Positions 12,234-57,996 of a stretch of 64,000 nt of DNA are shown one piece after another. The DNA comes from Malacoraja senta. Taxonomy: Eukaryota. Numbering within the stretch: the first letter of the stretch is position 1; each line of letters starts with the position of its first letter. The DNA is taken from assembly GCA_038087875.1 (NCBI GenBank), contig CM075993.1, forward strand, positions 3,164,001 through 3,228,000. The letters run 5' to 3'. Under the pieces are notes generated by a model. The model saw only the letters and a program-made list of their open reading frames with translations, searched no databases and was not told the origin of the DNA. The position numbers and the translations under genes were made by a program.

Positions 12234-12433
12234 NNNNNNNNNNNNNNNNNNNNNNNNNNNNNNNNNNNNNNNNNNNNNNNNNNNNNNNNNNNNNNNNNNN
12301 NNNNNNNNNNNNNNNNNNNNNNNNNNNNNNNNNNNNNNNNNNNNNNNNNNNNNNNNNNNNNNNNNNNNNNNNNNNNNNNNNNNNNNNNNNNNNNNNNNNN
12401 NNNNNNNNNNNNNNNNNNNNNNNNNNNNNNNNN
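12234..12433. other. Assembly gap (200 N)
   Basis: Run of exactly 200 N, probably a placeholder length. Confidence 0.99.
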
Positions 12434-15796: not shown

Positions 15797-16275
15797 TCTA
15801 TCCATGTACCTAATTGCTTCTTAAACGTTGCGATAGTCCCAGCCTTACCTACCTCCTCCGGCAGCTTGTTCCATACACCACCGCCCTTTGCGTGAAAAAA
15901 TTACCCCTAAGATACCTATAAAATCCTTTCCCCCATTACCTTAAACCTATGTCCTCTGGTTCTCGATTCCCTACTCTGGGCAAGAGATTCTACCCAATCT
16001 ATTCCCCTTCTTCTCCTTCTTGCGTATGGCGTGGACAGCCTAAAGTTGCAGGACAACTTGTTCTATTTGATCTTATTTGACTGTGCACGCCAGGTTGATT
16101 GCATTCGTCGAAACAGGGCGGACCACGTGAAGGTTGCAATCTCCCACCCAATCTATTCCCCTCGTGATTTTATACACCTCCGTAAGATCACCCCTCATCC
16201 TCCTGCGCTCCAAGGAATAGAGTCCCAGCCTACTCAACCTCTCCCTACAGCTTAGACCTGGCAAACATTCTTGTA
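15797..16275 (-). mobile_element. CR1 3' fragment interrupted by an HDV-ribozyme SINE
   Basis: GLSCRERLSRLGLYSLERRRMRGDL; CR1 resumes after the TSD. Confidence 0.85.
16009..16149 (-). mobile_element. ~135-bp SINE-like retroelement with 5' HDV-like fold (copy 1)
   Basis: TSD AATCTATTCCCCT (15996-16008, 16150-16162); AAG-type tail; matches 41771-41903 and 48139-48270. Confidence 0.85.
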
Positions 16276-22480: not shown

Positions 22481-22695
22481 TTTAAGAAGGAACTGCAGAT
22501 GCTGGAAAATCGAAGGTAGGGTGCAGCAGCATCTATGGAGCGAAGGAAATAGGCAACGTTTCGGGCCGAAACCCTGAAGGAATAGGCAACGTTTCGGGAC
22601 GAAACCCGGAAGGGTTTCGGCCCGAAACGTTGCCTATTTCCTTCGCTCCATAGATGCTGCTGCACCCGCTGAGTTTCTCCAGCATTTTTGTCTAC
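22481..22695. mobile_element. Palindromic composite of Penelope-like termini
   Basis: Inverted hammerhead halves joined at ACCCGGAAGGG; flanked by CCGGGATAT duplication (22472-22480, 22696-22704). Confidence 0.75.
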
Positions 22696-30215: not shown

Positions 30216-30874
30216 CTTACTTACTTACTTAAGGGCCTGTCATTTGCGCGTAATTTACACAACATCATTTACGCGCCACGACGCGCGCGCCCCAGGGTTT
30301 TGGGATGTACAAAATCTTCGTGCGCCATCTGCGTGACGCGCAAATGACACCTAAGTGGGACAGGCCCTTTACTGACTATGATGCCTCCTGGCATGTAGGG
30401 CAGCAAGGAAGGTCCTCCACTCCTGTCTGTTCTGGGCTAGCTTCTGGACACTACCCCAGGTCAGCTCCATTGTTTTCATTTCCTCCTCTACAGTTCGACG
30501 CCAGGTGGTTTTGGGTCTCCCTCTTTCCCTTTTCCCTTCCGGTGTCCAGTGCAGGGCTATTCTTGCGATGCTGTCTGGTACATTCATCCTAGCATCTGTC
30601 GATAGCCCTGGAAGTCCATCACGCCCAGTAGTGTTGATTCCATCAGTTTCTGTTTCCGTCACATATGTGTTTTACGAGACAGGGTTGTTAGTCCTGTACT
30701 CAACCCCCAACCTGGAGGACCAGTGGATCGATCGCTCTTCGTCTCGCCTCTACCCTTCCACCTGTCCAGCATGGGAGACCCTAACAGGAGACGAATCTCC
30801 CGCTGGCATAGCTCTAGGGGTCACTGAGATACACAAGCTCCCCGACCACGACAAGGTTGCAATCCAATGGGGAG
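30216..30874 (-). mobile_element. Bipartite RTE derivative (5' UTR fused to ORF2 C-terminus), (TAAG)n tail
   Basis: ALHWTPEGKRERGRPKTTWRRTVEEE...LAQNRQEWR is an RTE C-terminal motif; TSD AGCGGCAGA (30207-30215, 30877-30885). Confidence 0.85.
30232..30368. mobile_element. Short Harbinger-like MITE type D in the RTE tail
   Basis: AGGGCCTGTC...GTGGGACAGGCCCT with TTA TSD on both sides (30229-30231, 30369-30371). Confidence 0.8.
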
Positions 30875-32900: not shown

Positions 32901-33774
32901 GCCCATTCCTTCTCTCCAGAGATGCTGCCTGTCCCGCTGAGTTCCTCCAGCATTTTGTGTCTATCTTCACTGTACCTCAGTACAAGTGACAACAATGAAC
33001 TAAAAACCAAACTGGGAAACACTCTGAACTTAAAGGGAGAAAGCGTATGGAACTTCCAGCAGGTCTGTGGAGAAAACCGTTTAAGTCTACAGTCTGATCT
33101 CAAATCCCAAGACCGAAGGTAGCTCGTAGTTTGTATTTATTCTCTCCAAGAGTGCCTCTGCAACCCTCACCATCTCTCTTCATCTACAACCTATTGCTTT
33201 CCCCCTCATGTCCTTGTCCCATTAAACAAATCAATGCTGTTCATGTCCAACACTCCTAGAGTCGTTGAGCTTTAACCAAATGAGGTACAACCCTTAAAGA
33301 CTGTGTCCATTTTAAATGGAAACAAAATCAATGTGGGAGCAAACTTGTATTTGGCATCTCTGAGGCTGGTATTGAGAGGTCTGGATTAATCACTCCAAGA
33401 TGAAAGTTCCAATCCTCTCAGAAAACAGAACGGAAGTAATCAAACAAATCGAGGATCAATAATGAGTGGGAGTGCTGGATTGTTATTGAAATCCTGCTGA
33501 TTTTAGTTTAGTGTAGTGTACAGACATCACCCGTAGTCAGGATCGAACCCGGGTCTCTGGCGCTGTAAGGCAGCAGCTCTACCGCTGCGCCACCGTGCTG
33601 CCCTTTACACTTTGCCCCTCTCACCTTCAAACATCGCATATTCCTTCTCTCCAGAGATGCTGCCTGACCCCACTGAGTTACTCCAGCATTTTGTGTCTAT
33701 CTTCTGTGTAAAGCAGCATCTGCAGTTACTTCCAACGCCATGAATCCCATTCAATTTCACAGGGGGGAAAAAAT

Positions 33775-34135
33775 CATAGAAACATAGAAACATAGAAAAT
33801 AGGTGCAGGAGTAGGCCATTCGGCCCTTCGAGCCTGCACCGCCATTCAATATGATCATGGCTGATCATCCAACTCAGTATCCCGTACCTGCCTTCTCTCC
33901 ATATCCCCTGATCCCCTTAGCCACAAGGGCCACATCTAACTCCCTCTTAAATATAGCCAATGAACTGGCCTCAACTACCCTCTGTGGCAGAGAGTTCCAG
34001 AGATTCACCACTCTCTGTGAAAAAGTTTTTCCTCATCTCGGTCTTAAAGGATTTCCCCCTTATCCTTAAGCTGTGACCCCTTGTCCTGGACTTCCCCAAC
34101 ATCGGGAACAATCTTCCTGCATCTAGCCTGTCCAA
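33775..34135 (-). mobile_element. Young CR1 subfamily 3' fragment
   Basis: Nearly identical to 43227-43702 and 48267-48626; (TTTCTATG)n tail. Confidence 0.9.
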
Positions 34136-40400: not shown

Positions 40401-40553
40401 GACTATCCCAACGTTTAAGAAACAGTTAGACAGGTACCTGGATAGGACAGTTGTGGAGGGATATGGACCAAACGCGGGCAGGTGGGACTAATGCAGCTGG
40501 GACATGTTGGCCGGGGTGGGCAAGTTGGGCTGAAGGGCCTGTATCCACACTGT

Positions 40554-40814
40554 CTTCTTCTTCTTTCGTGTGGCGTGCACAGCCTAAAGTTGTTGGAGTT
40601 GTTGTCTGAAGAAGGGTTTCGGCCCGAAACGTTACCTATTTCCTTCGCTCCATAGATGCTGCTGCACCCGCTGAGTTTCTCCAGCATTTTTGTGTACCTT
40701 CGATTTTCCAGCATCTGCAGTTCCTTCTTTAACAACTTGTTCTATTTGATCTTTGTGCACGTCGAGGTGATTGCATTATTCGAAACAGGGCGGACCACGT
40801 GAATCTTCCACCCC
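40554..40814 (-). mobile_element. HDV-ribozyme SINE (copy 2, degraded) interrupted by a Penelope terminus (~40604-40733)
   Basis: TSD TCCACACTGT (40544-40553, 40817-40826); P2/P3 partly deleted. Confidence 0.8.
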
Positions 40815-40957
40815 TTTCCACACTGTAACACTCTATGACTCTAACTCAGCGGGTCAGGCAGCATCCGTGGAGGAACGGAGTCTACTACAGTCTGAGGAAG
40901 GGTCCCGACTCGATATCTTGTCAGTCCGTTTCTCTCCACTGCTGCCTGACCTGCTGA

Positions 40958-41260: not shown

Positions 41261-41770
41261 AACACCCTGTTATTTGTAATCAATGTTCAAAAAGTGGCAG
41301 GAATTGCGGACTTTTATTGTTTTGAATTGATGGAGGAACTGAAATTCAATCACATCGCCTTGCTTTTTAAGCATTGCACAACCAACATTGATTTTATTTT
41401 TCGAGAGCGAGCTGCAATAGAGATTGTTTGCTCTTACACCACTCGGAGTGTTCAGCCAGGCATTGTGTGTTGTGAGTCATCCACAGCCACTGGTGGAGAT
41501 GCTGCCAGACAGCGCCAGAGACCCGGGTTCGATCCTGACTACGGGTGCTGCCTGCACATTCTCCCCGTGACCATGTGGGTTTTCTCCCACACTGCAAAGA
41601 CGTGCAGGTTTGTAGGTCAATTGGCTTCTGTAAAATAGTAAATAGTCCCTAATGTGCAGCAGAGTGTGTGTGCATGTTGGTCATTGTGGAGGAAGGAACT
41701 GCAGATCCTGGTTTAAACCGGAGATAGACACCAAAATCTGGAGTAACTCAGCGGGACAGGCAGCATCTCT

Positions 41771-41903
41771 TCTTCTTCTTCTTGCGTATGGCATGCACAG
41801 TTGTAGGACAACTTGTTCTGTTTGATCTTATTTGATTGTACGCCGGGTTGATTGCATTCGTCGAAACAGGGCAGACCACGTGAAGGTTGCAATCTCCCAC
41901 CCC
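41771..41903 (-). mobile_element. HDV-ribozyme SINE (copy 3) inserted in a Penelope terminus
   Basis: TSD GCAGCATCTCT (41760-41770, 41904-41914); (AAG)n tail. Confidence 0.9.
41850..41903 (-). ncRNA. Candidate minimal HDV-like ribozyme
   Basis: P1 GGGGTGG/CTGCCCT, P2 GATTGCA/TGCAATC, P3 ACC/GGT, L3 TTCACGT, J4/2 CGAA. Confidence 0.75.
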
Positions 41904-43226
41904 GCAGCATCTCTGGAGAGAAGGAACGGGTGACGTCTCAGGTCGGGACCCTTCTTCAGGCTTGCCCCGCCCCCCCCCACCCCCACTCCCCTCCCCAATC
42001 TTTGCACATCCCCAATTCTTTCCACTCGTCACTTTAATTTCATGTTTCACGCATTTTGCGTTTTTATGACAGTTGGCAGATCAATTTAATAAAGTTCTAT
42101 CGTATCGTATCGTAGTGATCAGGTCGTCCTTTCCAGGTGAAGGTGCGGGCCTAAAGGGTCTGTTTCCATGTTAAATCGCTAGGCTAAACTAAACTGAGCC
42201 CAGGTGGTGGGATGGACAAAGACCCCAATGCAGCAAGCACGGCACAATGCATGTGTCATAGAAATATAGAAACATAGAAAATAGGTGCAGGAGTAGGCCA
42301 TTCGGCCCTTCGAGCCAGCACCGCCATTCTATATGATGTGTGTGCTAAAACAAAGCAAGAATTTTATTGTCCTATCAGGGACACATGACAATAAAACTCT
42401 CTTGAACTCTTGATCATGGCTGATCATACACAATCAGTACCTGCTTTCTCCCCATATCCCTTGATTCCGTTAGCCCTAAGAGCTCTATCTAACTCTCACT
42501 TGAAAACATCCAGTGAATTGGCCTCCACTGCCTTCTGTGGCAGAGAATTCCACAAATTTACAACTAACTCTCTGGGTGAAAAAGTTTTTCTTCGTCTCAG
42601 TCCTAAATGGCCTAGCCCTTATTCTTAAACTGTGAATTCTCTGAACTCACTGCTTTCAGGGCAGTAGCACGCTGTCGTAAAACCCCCAGGCTGGGAGTCG
42701 CTAAATTATTCAAGGGTCAATTGCGAGAATTATGGTGTTGAGATTTTCTCCTGATTTCTATGTAGTCATGAAGAAATATTGATGTGGAAAGTGAATTGCA
42801 GCCACAGGCCGCAATTATGCAGCTTTAAGGCGAGGCCAAATAAAACGCACCGCTGATTTCATGTTAATTTTTCCTGCGCTTTTTTTCTGTGATCCATCTG
42901 TTGGAAGTGAACGGTGGAAAAAAAAAATTTCCCGCCATCAATTGGTATTGCGGTAAGATTGGACTCGCACAGGTCATGGGGAGGACGTACAAACTCCGTA
43001 CAGACAGCACCCGTAGTCGGGATCGAACCCGGGTCTCTGGCGCTGTGAGGCAGCAGCTTTCTACCGCTGTGCCACCATGCACTAAAAATGTGATTTATAA
43101 TGAAGCCACGAGGAACTGCAGATGCTGGTTTATAAATTAAAAAAAGACACAAAGTGCTGGAGTAACTCAGCAGGTCAGGCAGCATCTCTGGATAGGTTGC
43201 GTTTCAGATCAGAACCCTTCATCTGT

Positions 43227-43702
43227 CATAGAAACATAGAAACATAGAAATTAGGTGCAGGAGTAGGCCATTCGGCCCTTCGAGCCTGCACCGCCATTCA
43301 ATATGATCATGGCTGATCATCCAACTCAGTATCCCGTACCTGCCTTCTCTCCATACCCTCTGATCCCTTTAGCCACAAGGGCCACATCTAACTCCCTCTT
43401 AAATATAGCCAATGAACTGGCCTCGACTACCCTCTGTGGCAGAGAGTTCCAGAGATTCACCACTCTTTGTGTGAAAAAAGTTCTTCTCATCTCGGTTTTA
43501 AAGGATTTCCCCCTTATCCTTAAGCTGTGACCCCTTGTCCTGGACTTCCCCAACATCGGGAGCAATCTTCCTGCATCTAGCCTGTCCAACCCCTTAAGAA
43601 TTTTGTAAGTTTCTATAAGATCCCCTCTCAATCTCCTAAATTCTAGAGAGTATAAACCAAGTCTATCCAGTCTTTCTTCATAAGACAGTCCTGACATCCC
43701 AG
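43227..43702 (-). mobile_element. Young CR1 3' fragment with uninterrupted ORF2 C-terminus
   Basis: PGMSGLSYEERLDRLGLYSLEFRRLRGDLIETYKILKG...GYGEKAGTGY*. Confidence 0.92.
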
Positions 43703-47589: not shown

Positions 47590-48138
47590 TAAGGGTGCTG
47601 TCTATACGGAGTTTGCATATTCCCCCCCGTGACCTGCGCGGGTTTTTCTCCGTGTGCTTCGGTTTCCTCCCACACTCCGAAGACGTGCAGGTTTGTAGGT
47701 TGATTGGCTTCTGTAAAATCAAAAATTGTTCCTAGTGTGTGTATGTGTAGTATAGTGTTAGTGTGCGGGGATCGCTGGTCGGTGCAGACTCGGTGGGCCG
47801 AAGGGCCTGTTTCCGCGCTGTATCTCTAAACTAAACTAAACAATATTGTGTGACAGCACAATGTGACCGTATCCCTCCAACCTGTCCTATTCATGTACCT
47901 GTCTAACTGTCTCTTAAGCATTGGGATAGTACCTGCCTCAACTACCTCTATTCCTATTAAATCTTTTCCCCTTCGCCTTAAACCTATGTCCCCTTGTCCT
48001 CGATTCGCCTACTCTGGGCAAAGGTCTCTGTGCATCTACCCGATCTATTCCTCTCATGATTTTATACACCTCCATAAGATCCCCCTTTATCCTCCTGCTC
48101 TCCAAGGAATAGAGTCCCAGCGTGCTCAACCTCTGCCT

Positions 48139-48192
48139 GGGGTGGGAGATTGCAACCTTCACGTGGTCCACCCTGTTTCGACGAATGCAATC
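48139..48192 (+). ncRNA. Candidate minimal HDV-like ribozyme (54 nt)
   Basis: P1 GGGGTGG(48139-45)/CCACCCT(48168-74) with G1-U wobble; P2 GATTGCA/TGCAATC; P3 ACC/GGT; L3 TTCACGT; J4/2 CGAA with putative catalytic C48182. Confidence 0.8.
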
Positions 48193-48270
48193 AACCTGGC
48201 GTTCACAAATAGAAGATCAAACAGAACAAGTTGTCTTACAACTTTAGGCTGTGCATGCCATACGCAAGAA
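48139..48270 (+). mobile_element. HDV-ribozyme SINE (copy 4), tail interrupted by young CR1 (48267-48626)
   Basis: TSD AACCTCTGCCT (48128-48138, 48633-48643) within an older minus-strand CR1 (47868-48810). Confidence 0.88.
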
Positions 48271-49911
48271 ACATAGAAACATAGAAACATAGAAAATAGG
48301 TGCAGGAGTAGGCCATTCGGCCCTTCGAGCCTGCACCGCCATTCAATATGATCATGGCTGATCATCCAACTCAGTATCCCGTACCTGCCTTCTCTCCATA
48401 CCCCCTGATCCCTTTAGCCACAAGGGCCACATCTAACTCCCTCTTAAATATAGCCAATGAACTGGCCTCAACTACCCTCTGTGGCAGAGAGTTCCAGAGA
48501 TTCACCACTCTCTGTGTGAAAAAGTATTTTCTCATCTCGGTCTTAAAGGATTTCCCCCTTATCCTTAACTGTGACCCCTTGTCCTGGACTTCCCCAAAAT
48601 CTTCCTGCATCTAGCCTGTCCAACCCCATAAGAACCTCTGCCTATAGCTCAGACCCTCTAGCCCAGGCAACATCCTCGTAAATCTTCTCTGCACCCTTTC
48701 CAGCTTGACAACATCTTTCCTATAACATGGTGCCCAGAACTGAATGCAATACTCTAAATGCAGCCTCACTAAAGTCTTATACAACGGCAACATGACCTCC
48801 CAACTTCCATACTTCTATCTCGACTTTAGACTTTAGAGATACAGTGTGGAATAAAGCACTTCAACCCACTGAGTTTGCGCCAACTAGCTATCACCTTGTG
48901 CACTAGCACTATTCCACATTTTGATTAGTAAGGGTGTCAGGGTTTATGGGGAGAAGGCAGAAGAATGGGGTTGAGAGGGGAAGATTTATCAGCCATGATT
49001 GAATGGCGGAATAGACTTGATGGGCCGAATGGTCTAATTCAGCTCCTATAACTTATTAACTGGGGACAATTTACAGAAGCCAATTAACCTACAAACTTGA
49101 ACTTCTGTGGAATGTGGGAGGAAAACTGAGCACCCAGAGAAAGCCCACACAGTCCCGGGGAGAATGTATAAACTCCATGCAGATAGGATCGAACCGACGC
49201 GCCTGGCGCTGTAAGGCAGCAACTCTACCGCTGCGCCACCGTACTGAGGAAAAATCTATTCAGGCAAAGGATGGTGAATCTTTGGAATTCTCCTCCTTGG
49301 CGGTGCTGAGGAGGTTCAGTCCCAGCTTGTACTGAAAATAGCGATCGATAAACCTCAATATTCAAGGAATTATTATAGAGAATGTTTAGGATTATGGCAA
49401 CAAGATCAAAGGTCAGCCACGATCTTATTGAAAGTCAGAGAAAGTTTGATGGGCCAGTTCCTGCTCATTTCCCTCCTGTTCTTGTGTGTCGAGAATTCAG
49501 CCTCTACTCCCTTGACAGGTCGAAATGCAAAATAAACAGTGGTATTTGTTGGGTATGAATTGAAATTGCAGTCTTATCTACTTCTTTCAGGAGGATATAA
49601 TTGGTTGCAATATTCTATTTGAAGTGCCCAGAGTTCTGGTCAATATTTCTCCAAAGGTGTTTTCACAAAAAAAACAAAAAAAATCAAGGACTTTTATAGA
49701 TGTTTGTACTTTCTGGCTTGGTACAAGTTAAAGCTGCAACGGTAGTTACACAACAAAATGGCTTGTGTCTCATTCCCTTCATCCATCAGTCTCACTGACA
49801 AACATTGGCTGCCCGCCTGCATTTTAACATCTTCATCAATCTTGTCAAACACTGCCAGGGCTTTACGCTGTTCCGTCTCCGAGAACTCCTCCACCTCGAC
49901 ATCGAGAGATC

Positions 49912-57527: not shown

Positions 57528-57996
57528 AGATACAAAAAAGCTGGAAAAATCGAAGGTAGACAAAAATGCTGGAGAAACTCAGCGGGTGAGGCAGCATCTC
57601 CGGAGAGAAGGAATGGGTGACGTTGCGGGTCGAGACCCTTCTTCAGGCTATCTTTCATTCATTTGTTCTATATCTCTCTATAATCACCATCTATATCTCT
57701 TGGGTAGACAAAAATGCTGGAGAAACTCAGCGGGTGAGGCAGCATCTCTGGAGCGAAGGAATAGGTGACGTTTCGGGTCGAGACCAGGAAGCATCTATGG
57801 AGTGAAGGAATAGGTGACGTTTCGGGTCGAGACCATTCCGGGTCTCGACCCGAAACGTCACCTATTCCTTCGCTCCATAGATGCTGCCTCACCCGCTGAG
57901 TTTCTCCAGCATTTTTGTCTACCTTCGATTTTTCCAGCATCTGCGGTTCTTTCTTAAACATCTATATCTCTTGTTTCTCTTTCCCCTGACTCTCAG
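57528..57996. mobile_element. Palindromic/tandem Penelope-terminus composite
   Basis: Inverted termini joined at TTCCGGG; shares the GACCAGGAAGCATC junction with 44395-44600. Confidence 0.75.

Follow-up and report, generated by a model that had tools for sequence, protein, structure and literature searches.

The 64,000-nucleotide stretch of DNA analysed here (the window) holds four copies of an element of about 135 nt whose 5′ end was described in a first-pass annotation as an HDV-like ribozyme, raising the question of what the element is, where its ribozyme-like head came from and how it is copied.

Four copies in the window and the family in the genome

All four annotated copies were recovered by blastn, copies 1 and 3 being 91% and 88% identical to copy 4 and copy 2 appearing as two pieces. 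The claim that each copy has its own target site duplication (TSD) also held: 13 nt in copy 1 (17 nt if overlap with the first bases of the element is counted), 10 nt in copy 2 and 11 nt in copies 3 and 4. That of copy 4 is displaced because a younger repeat of 362 nt sits in its tail. Features are given below in window coordinates.

48128 to 48138, forward strand: 5′ TSD of copy 4, 11 nt, abutting G1 (from the 48127 to 48633 joint)
48139 to 48192, forward strand: predicted HDV-like fold of copy 4 (descriptor parse, weak Rfam HDV match and cross-family covariation)
48193 to 48236, forward strand: remaining part of the LINE 5′ UTR (ending near nt 70–80) and a rearranged A-rich linker of copy 4 (alignment to LINE 5′ ends)
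48237 to 48270, forward strand: last ~34 nt of the LINE in copy 4, with final codons and a TAG stop, then a short 3′ UTR that ends in CATACG and the start of the AAG tail
48271 to 48632, reverse strand (taken from its tail repeat): younger, unrelated repeat of 362 nt in the tail of copy 4
48633 to 48643, forward strand: 3′ TSD of copy 4, displaced by the nested insertion
41771 to 41903, reverse strand: copy 3, complete fold, G1 next to an 11-nt TSD (41760–41770 and 41904–41914)
16009 to 16149, reverse strand: copy 1, starting at G2, 13-nt TSD, G1–U pair lost
40554 to 40814, reverse strand: copy 2, broken fold with a deletion of ~7 nt, 10-nt TSD (40544–40553 and 40817–40826)

A 505-nt skip from 48127 to 48633, as predicted by the 11-nt TSD of copy 4 (48128–48138 and 48633–48643), was present in contigs from three of four public runs; these contigs probably come from other copies of the host repeat. 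The nested repeat at 48271–48632 is 94–95% identical to window 43227–43600 and 33769–34135. In copies 3 and 4 G1 adjoins the TSD as annotated, and copy 2 carries an insert of ~138 nt at about 40594–40731. A tRNA scan of the window gave no tRNA and, in agreement with the earlier description, the element has neither A nor B box and no coding frame apart from the last codons of a LINE. No tRNA, 7SL or 5S head with internal boxes was found, so the element is not a classical Pol III SINE. A search for host genes in 144 of the 186 non-repeat frames of the window gave one weak match below cut-off and thus no gene to which read-through transcription could be tied.

Some other observations concern the window itself. 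A run of 200 Ns (an assembly gap) starts at 12234, and a 21-nt reverse-strand match to P2–P3 of the predicted ribozyme (30844–30864, E 0.006) is either an old fragment or a chance match. An abundant palindromic repeat was seen at 728–942, 22549–22639, 57701–57921 and 40594–40731; a hammerhead-core regular expression matched nine times on the forward and ten times on the reverse strand, Rfam returned only miRNA-type hairpin matches below gathering, and the repeat is possibly Penelope-related.

A ribozyme-core pattern of 22 fixed bases has 5,586 exact matches in the 1.94-Gb genome, which sets a lower bound on the number of copies in the family. A 28-nt pattern for the 3′ end gave 2,692 exact matches, and the reversed control of each pattern gave none, which excludes a chance origin of the element. 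Thirty loci were then drawn from the 3′-end matches alone (the first 30 listed), avoiding bias towards any particular 5′ end; they comprised 28 short elements, one truncated LINE and one stub, and as L084 and L085 are a local duplicate, 27 of the 28 short copies are independent. The 5′ end lies at G1 in 23 of the 28 and at G2 in three more (26/28 for either). A TSD of at least 8 nt was present in 24 of the 28 short copies as against 9 of 870 mismatched pairs, and it abuts the start of the element in 23 of the 25 short copies that have a TSD. None of the 28 has a shared extension 5′ of G1, routine extension being a feature that the first-pass annotation had counted against its reading.

The predicted ribozyme fold

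In copy 4 the predicted fold has a P1 of 7 bp opening with G1–U36 (48139–48145 with 48168–48174), a J1/2 of 2 nt, a P2 of 7 bp (48148–48154 with 48186–48192), a P3 of 3 bp (48155–48157 with 48165–48167) with L3 UUCACGU (48158–48164), seven nucleotides of J1/4 and L4 standing in for P1.1/P4 (48175–48181) and a J4/2 of CGAA (48182–48185); C48182 is the predicted catalytic residue and the cut is predicted 5′ of G48139. Several defining features of HDV-like ribozymes (PMC4908430, PMC6326823; here and below, papers are cited for those portions of their text that were available) are thus present: a P1 of 6–7 bp, P2 of ~7 bp and P3 of 3 bp in nested pseudoknot order, a G1–Y pair (G1–U36) at the predicted cleavage site, which coincides with the 5′ end of the element, the conserved U, C and G of L3, and a catalytic C followed by purines in J4/2. 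A strict HDV descriptor applied to both strands of the window matched at copies 3 and 4 only. The fold as first described therefore stands for these two copies and not for the others: copy 2 is broken because ~7 nt of P2/P3 are lost and ~138 nt inserted, and copy 1 starts at G2, so that its position 1 is a U unable to pair.

The P4 stem is missing, 7 nt separating P1 from the catalytic C, which fits the minimal subclass without P4. P1.1 could draw on a single C22–G37 pair accompanied by U21/U38, which is also the arrangement in the consensus for CPEB3. A G37–C44 pair could compete with it and would close a UUCG loop, a possible misfold that involves the catalytic C44 and is of a kind avoided by designers of minimal ribozymes (PMC6326823). 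Rfam gave 20.3 bits for RF00094 (gathering 50) and 15.9 for RF02682 (gathering 44), both below gathering, and no ribozyme family at E ≤ 1 in the whole window; the MFE fold lacks P1, the program being unable to model pseudoknots.

The P1 variants of the copies had been read as conserved pairing, a reading that did not survive, as CCACCCT is the ancestral state of the LINE and CTGCCCT is CpG decay of CCGCCCT. Covariation in P1 among the copies was rejected: in 31 copies, including one misaligned and one partly deleted, only 19 of 41 substitutions at paired positions keep the pair, and 12 of the 19 fall on a single CpG (positions 31/32), with 7 keeping and 20 breaking the pair elsewhere. All pairs and core bases are intact in 16 of the 31. 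Among the 100 matches listed, hand counts of the states at this CpG were CG 58, CA 30, TG 7, TA 3 and AG 2, the catalytic C is kept in 94, and the common variants of J4/2 alter only its second position (G 55, T 26, A 9, C 4, also by hand). Selection on the catalytic C was not apparent among the copies either, its CpG showing 5 C>T and 9 G>A changes against 8 and 15 at the neighbouring CpG (hand count, same 100 listed). We propose that short copies decay mostly neutrally once inserted.

Comparison was extended to relatives, namely 80 metagenome loci encoding related proteins and totalling 642,452 bases. A relaxed HDV descriptor gave nine matches, all on the sense strand and within 500 nt upstream of an ORF (8,141 bases at 18 loci), and none in the other ~634 kb. 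The nine matches represent about six LINE families. In the alignment of the nine heads, 92.8% of cells are paired and 13 of 17 pairs have changed on both sides, with none of 500 shuffles equalling this and slid controls reaching 32–51%, although this set was chosen by a pairing descriptor and it is therefore the position upstream of the ORF, and not the pair counts, that constitutes independent evidence. Five metagenome LINEs and L095, a full-length LINE of the genome under study, have a TSD that ends 0–3 nt ahead of the start of the ribozyme (0–1 nt in the five alone); a TSD was sought for one further metagenome LINE, L118, and none was found. Descriptors in which the catalytic C was changed to A, G or T matched the same ribozymes in a shifted register and are invalid as a control. 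The spacing from P1 to the catalytic C is 16–26 nt in the relatives parsed as against 7 in the LINE and short element of this family. A further related LINE head, at L106:~420–560, folds by eye in HDV fashion with a long hairpin in L3 and is missed by the descriptor. The original claim of an HDV-like 5′ end is thus well supported by the G1/G2 starts, by descriptor matches at the 5′ ends of relatives and by compensatory changes across six LINE families.

The partner LINE and the origin of the element

A LINE with both ends of the element, of the kind for which the first-pass annotation had proposed a search, was found at L095 and L091. It is ~2.8 kb long and comprises the 54-nt HDV-like fold, ~50 nt more of 5′ UTR, one ORF, a 3′ UTR of ~25 nt and an AAG tail. 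The ORF encodes APE, RT and a C-terminal Cys/His motif and lacks RNase H. L095 is an uninverted ~2.8-kb copy in which a single TSD of 10–11 nt surrounds head, ORF, shared 3′ end and AAG tail, and L091 is a second full-length copy whose first ~215 nt are inverted. Both are broken by stops and frameshifts, and no intact driver was found among the copies read. At L070 an ORF with the Cys/His motif ends in codons, stop and 3′ UTR that are the last ~34 nt of the element; the 3′ part of copy 4 is 94% and 85% identical to the 3′ ends of L091 and L095, respectively, and the L070 translation agrees. The fold core is present in seven of ten LINE 5′ ends read, six of the seven with CUAA in J4/2, the predominant form in the LINE and that of the Rfam HDV consensus. 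The LINE 5′ region gave 24 matches in the genome and its 3′ region 481 candidates; set against thousands of short copies, the 24 matches give a ratio of short elements to full-length LINEs of more than 200 to 1. In at least five of the 24, judged by strand, the 5′ part is inverted relative to the body, as in twin priming.

Homologues of the LINE protein are single ORFs of ~1,000 aa with APE and RT. L091 and L095 align along the entire 1019 aa of P0005, which has Exo_endo_phos and RVT_1, and RNase H was found neither in P0005 and P0124 nor in the Pfam lists of the 120 homologues listed. Vingi is defined as compact, with APE and RT encoded in a single ORF and, in contrast to Ingi, no RNase H (PMC13708176). 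In an RT tree built without Vingi-labelled rows or an Ingi reference, the LINE groups with P0005 within a clade holding an Anolis carolinensis RT, and this clade is separated from the two-ORF LINE of the same genome (100/100). These data suggest that the partner LINE is Vingi-like, in support of an early guess at an Ingi/Vingi-type partner. The accompanying guess about the type of 3′ end is borne out in that CATACG or CACACG followed by a microsatellite recurs in many related metagenome LINEs. A search for a solved Vingi structure found none, the nearest being L1 and R2 proteins.

The two-ORF LINE, obtained from a PF14529 search (L031–L060) and which we take to be I/Nimb-like, was rejected as partner, with no match to the element in its 30 loci. 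It has open frames of up to 1,277 aa and many near-identical copies and is apparently young. As a separate observation, the protein encoded at L070:1310–1501 is 85% identical over ~53 aa to a protein of the eel Synaphobranchus kaupii and 86% to another record (P0003, P0004), and the best genome pieces of the LINE protein reach 75–88% to the eel protein. Horizontal transfer is a possible explanation if the host is a cartilaginous fish; other repeats of the window presumably resemble those of cartilaginous fish.

The element keeps the first ~70–100 nt of this LINE and its last ~34 nt. Its head is nearly identical to the LINE 5′ end over 60–85 nt, and that sequence is contiguous with the ORF in L095, L096 and L100. 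In one subfamily (L084/L085) the 5′ UTR persists as far as TTGACC, a motif also found at the end of the ORF in L097, so that a deletion between the two would have removed almost exactly the ORF. In the common subfamily the linker is changed and the middle ~25 nt align poorly with the LINE 5′ UTR. The 5′ end, the 3′ end and the tail are those of the same LINE, an ORF is absent and TSDs vary in length, as in bipartite LINEs. We put at about 95% the probability that the element is a bipartite, internally deleted derivative of the Vingi-like LINE of the same genome. The earlier view of it as a SINE is therefore upheld as to the ribozyme head and mobilisation by a LINE and abandoned as to independent birth, the ribozyme being the LINE's own 5′ end.

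The 3′ half of copy 4 (48193–48270) can form a long hairpin that joins 5′-UTR-derived and 3′-end sequence, with fold z-scores of −1.5 to −3.9 in six genome copies and a derived, stem-extending base as the majority state. Long-range pairing of the LINE 5′ UTR with the 3′ end found no support (p 0.03, 0.06 and 0.61 in three tests, with 31 of 294 body windows pairing equally well), and the hairpin of the short element is a lead only.

Under the proposed mechanism, a deletion at the shared TTGACC, seen in one subfamily and presumably made by a jump, would have brought the last codons next to the end of the 5′ UTR, and the common subfamily would have changed its linker afterwards. The ribozyme would free the element RNA just before G1 from any host or neighbouring transcript, giving a uniform 5′ end without a start site of its own. 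The LINE protein, acting in trans, would bind the common 3′ end and use target-primed reverse transcription to copy the ~135-nt RNA, each insertion acquiring a TSD of 9–13 nt and a new AAG tail. The short length would make copies nearly always full, thus placing the ribozyme in each and producing the more than 200-to-1 excess. Mobilisation in trans is suggested by the shared ends and the like TSD sizes, and the mechanism as a whole, including the ribozyme cut and copying in trans by the LINE protein, is considered likely.

An internal Pol II promoter, or a dual promoter/ribozyme like Pr77 of L1Tc, would also account for the uniform starts, as a fixed start site would likewise yield copies beginning at nt 1 and read-through would be unneeded. 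Pr77 of L1Tc and NARTc is both promoter and ribozyme (PMC3383444, PMC8256844), and bipartite LINEs have been described as transcribed by Pol II under the control of their 5′ regions (Kojima 2018). A promoter alone sits poorly with a head whose sequence varies freely over six families while the fold and catalytic-core bases are kept, although a dual role is still compatible; overall we regard a promoter-set 5′ end as possible but rather unlikely.

The P4-less head might alternatively have ceased to cleave, being kept from an active ancestor as a structural 5′ cap or protein-binding site. The short spacing from P1 to the catalytic C compared with the relatives and the possible G37–C44 misfold are in keeping with this, as are R2 ribozyme folds, which protect 5′ ends (PMC13708176) and bind R2 protein (PMC6765202). 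Every core base is nevertheless kept in both LINE and short element, the common J4/2 variants hit the second position only, the exact end at G1 still needs some process, and HDV-like ribozymes lacking P4 are active (PMC10879173, PMC6326823). Loss of cleavage is thus improbable and the head probably cleaves itself, a prediction made from sequence. An independent SINE that took its ribozyme head from elsewhere and only its 3′ tail from the LINE would account for the poorly aligned middle ~25 nt of the common subfamily but is scarcely credible given the near identity of the head to the LINE 5′ end over 60–85 nt, the 5′ UTR kept in L084/L085, the lack of tRNA and A/B box, and the single TSD around head, ORF and tail of full-length L095.

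Possible relation to CPEB3 and comparison with other ribozyme-headed elements

The bipartite design is already known from flies and trypanosomes. In R2 SIDEs (short internally deleted elements) of Drosophila, a 5′ HDV-like ribozyme is fused to the 3′ end of a parental non-LTR retrotransposon (PMC3414825). Like the element described here they have no ORF, and they are copied in trans, as is proposed for it; they are rare, site-specific in rDNA and dependent on an RLE-type driver, whereas this element is dispersed in thousands of copies of ~135 nt with an APE-type driver. NARTc, RIME and SIDER (L1Tc/ingi, trypanosomatids) resemble the present element in having an Ingi-related driver, a ribozyme at nt 1, dispersal and a bipartite structure, according to the text available; their Pr77 is 77 nt long with tested promoter activity, whereas the present head is 54 nt long, without P4, in an animal genome and a predicted ribozyme. 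Non-autonomous internal-deletion derivatives of Vingi-1_EE in hedgehog share the presumed driver clade and bipartite origin (PMC5786205). The same source, in its available text, lists six clades that bear ribozymes, Vingi not included.

The minimal drz-Mtgn-1 and theta ribozymes likewise lack P4 and have a short J1/2 and a catalytic C first in J4/2; nearly 99% of minimal HDV-like ribozymes are in Caudoviricetes, and the accessible text reports none from the human, mouse and protist genomes screened (PMC10879173). Theta ribozymes follow tRNAs in phage, whereas this head starts a eukaryotic retroelement in a window without tRNA. Literature searches turned up nothing on this family or on ribozymes of Vingi elements, although Repbase, Dfam, patents or supplements could already hold either. 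Ribozyme heads of Vingi-like LINEs, and a retroelement of vertebrate type that carries a ribozyme lacking P4, appear to be undescribed.

The CPEB3 ribozyme (RF00622) has the identical L3 UUCACGU, J1/4 GU, J4/2 CGAA, a 2-nt J1/2 and a single C–G P1.1, and differs in its other stem sequences, its full P4 and its single-copy state; the window element scores nothing on RF00622. A closer match comes from one locus, L151:3617–3689 (the same locus as L152 and L153). The Vingi-like LINE there is full-length, and its head reaches 55.6 bits with RF00622, above the gathering score of 35. Counted from G1, 35 of 37 bases agree with the CPEB3 consensus, as do all 9 at the 3′ end, and the agreement extends to stems that are otherwise freely variable; against the human CPEB3 sequence printed in PMC5984629 the figure is 34 of 37. 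The head begins one nucleotide downstream of a 12-nt TSD, and the RT groups with the anole protein. As other families differ freely in the stems that match CPEB3, shared ancestry with CPEB3 is likelier than convergence, though so much conservation across so great a distance would itself call for an explanation. A trace of Vingi is present in the human genome (PMC5753468), and neither literature searches on where CPEB3 came from nor the available text of PMC10919898, PMC8256844 and PMC8233481 pointed to a LINE origin. We see an even chance for the wider proposition that the Vingi-like clade starts with HDV-like ribozymes, that this family has a working P4-less head and that another lineage was the source of CPEB3. 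If true, the CPEB3 ribozyme would descend by exaptation from the first ~70 nt of a Vingi element inserted long ago, an origin that the L151 match makes testable, and the present element would be one of the smallest self-processing retroposons.

Vingi is in development for RNA-only gene insertion, with the native 5′ UTR kept and about a quarter of insertions truncated (PMC13708176), and the ~135-nt element offers a natural definition of the cis sequences required by a Vingi-type protein (first ~70–100 nt and last ~34 nt). The available text of PMC5786205 suggests that clades with 5′ ribozymes are those that give rise to bipartite non-autonomous LINEs; the family supports this and adds the one of the four clades for which no ribozyme was listed there. 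With this family, minimal P4-less ribozymes would extend beyond gut phages to thousands of copies in a genome of vertebrate type, and those lying in introns on the sense strand could cut pre-mRNAs.
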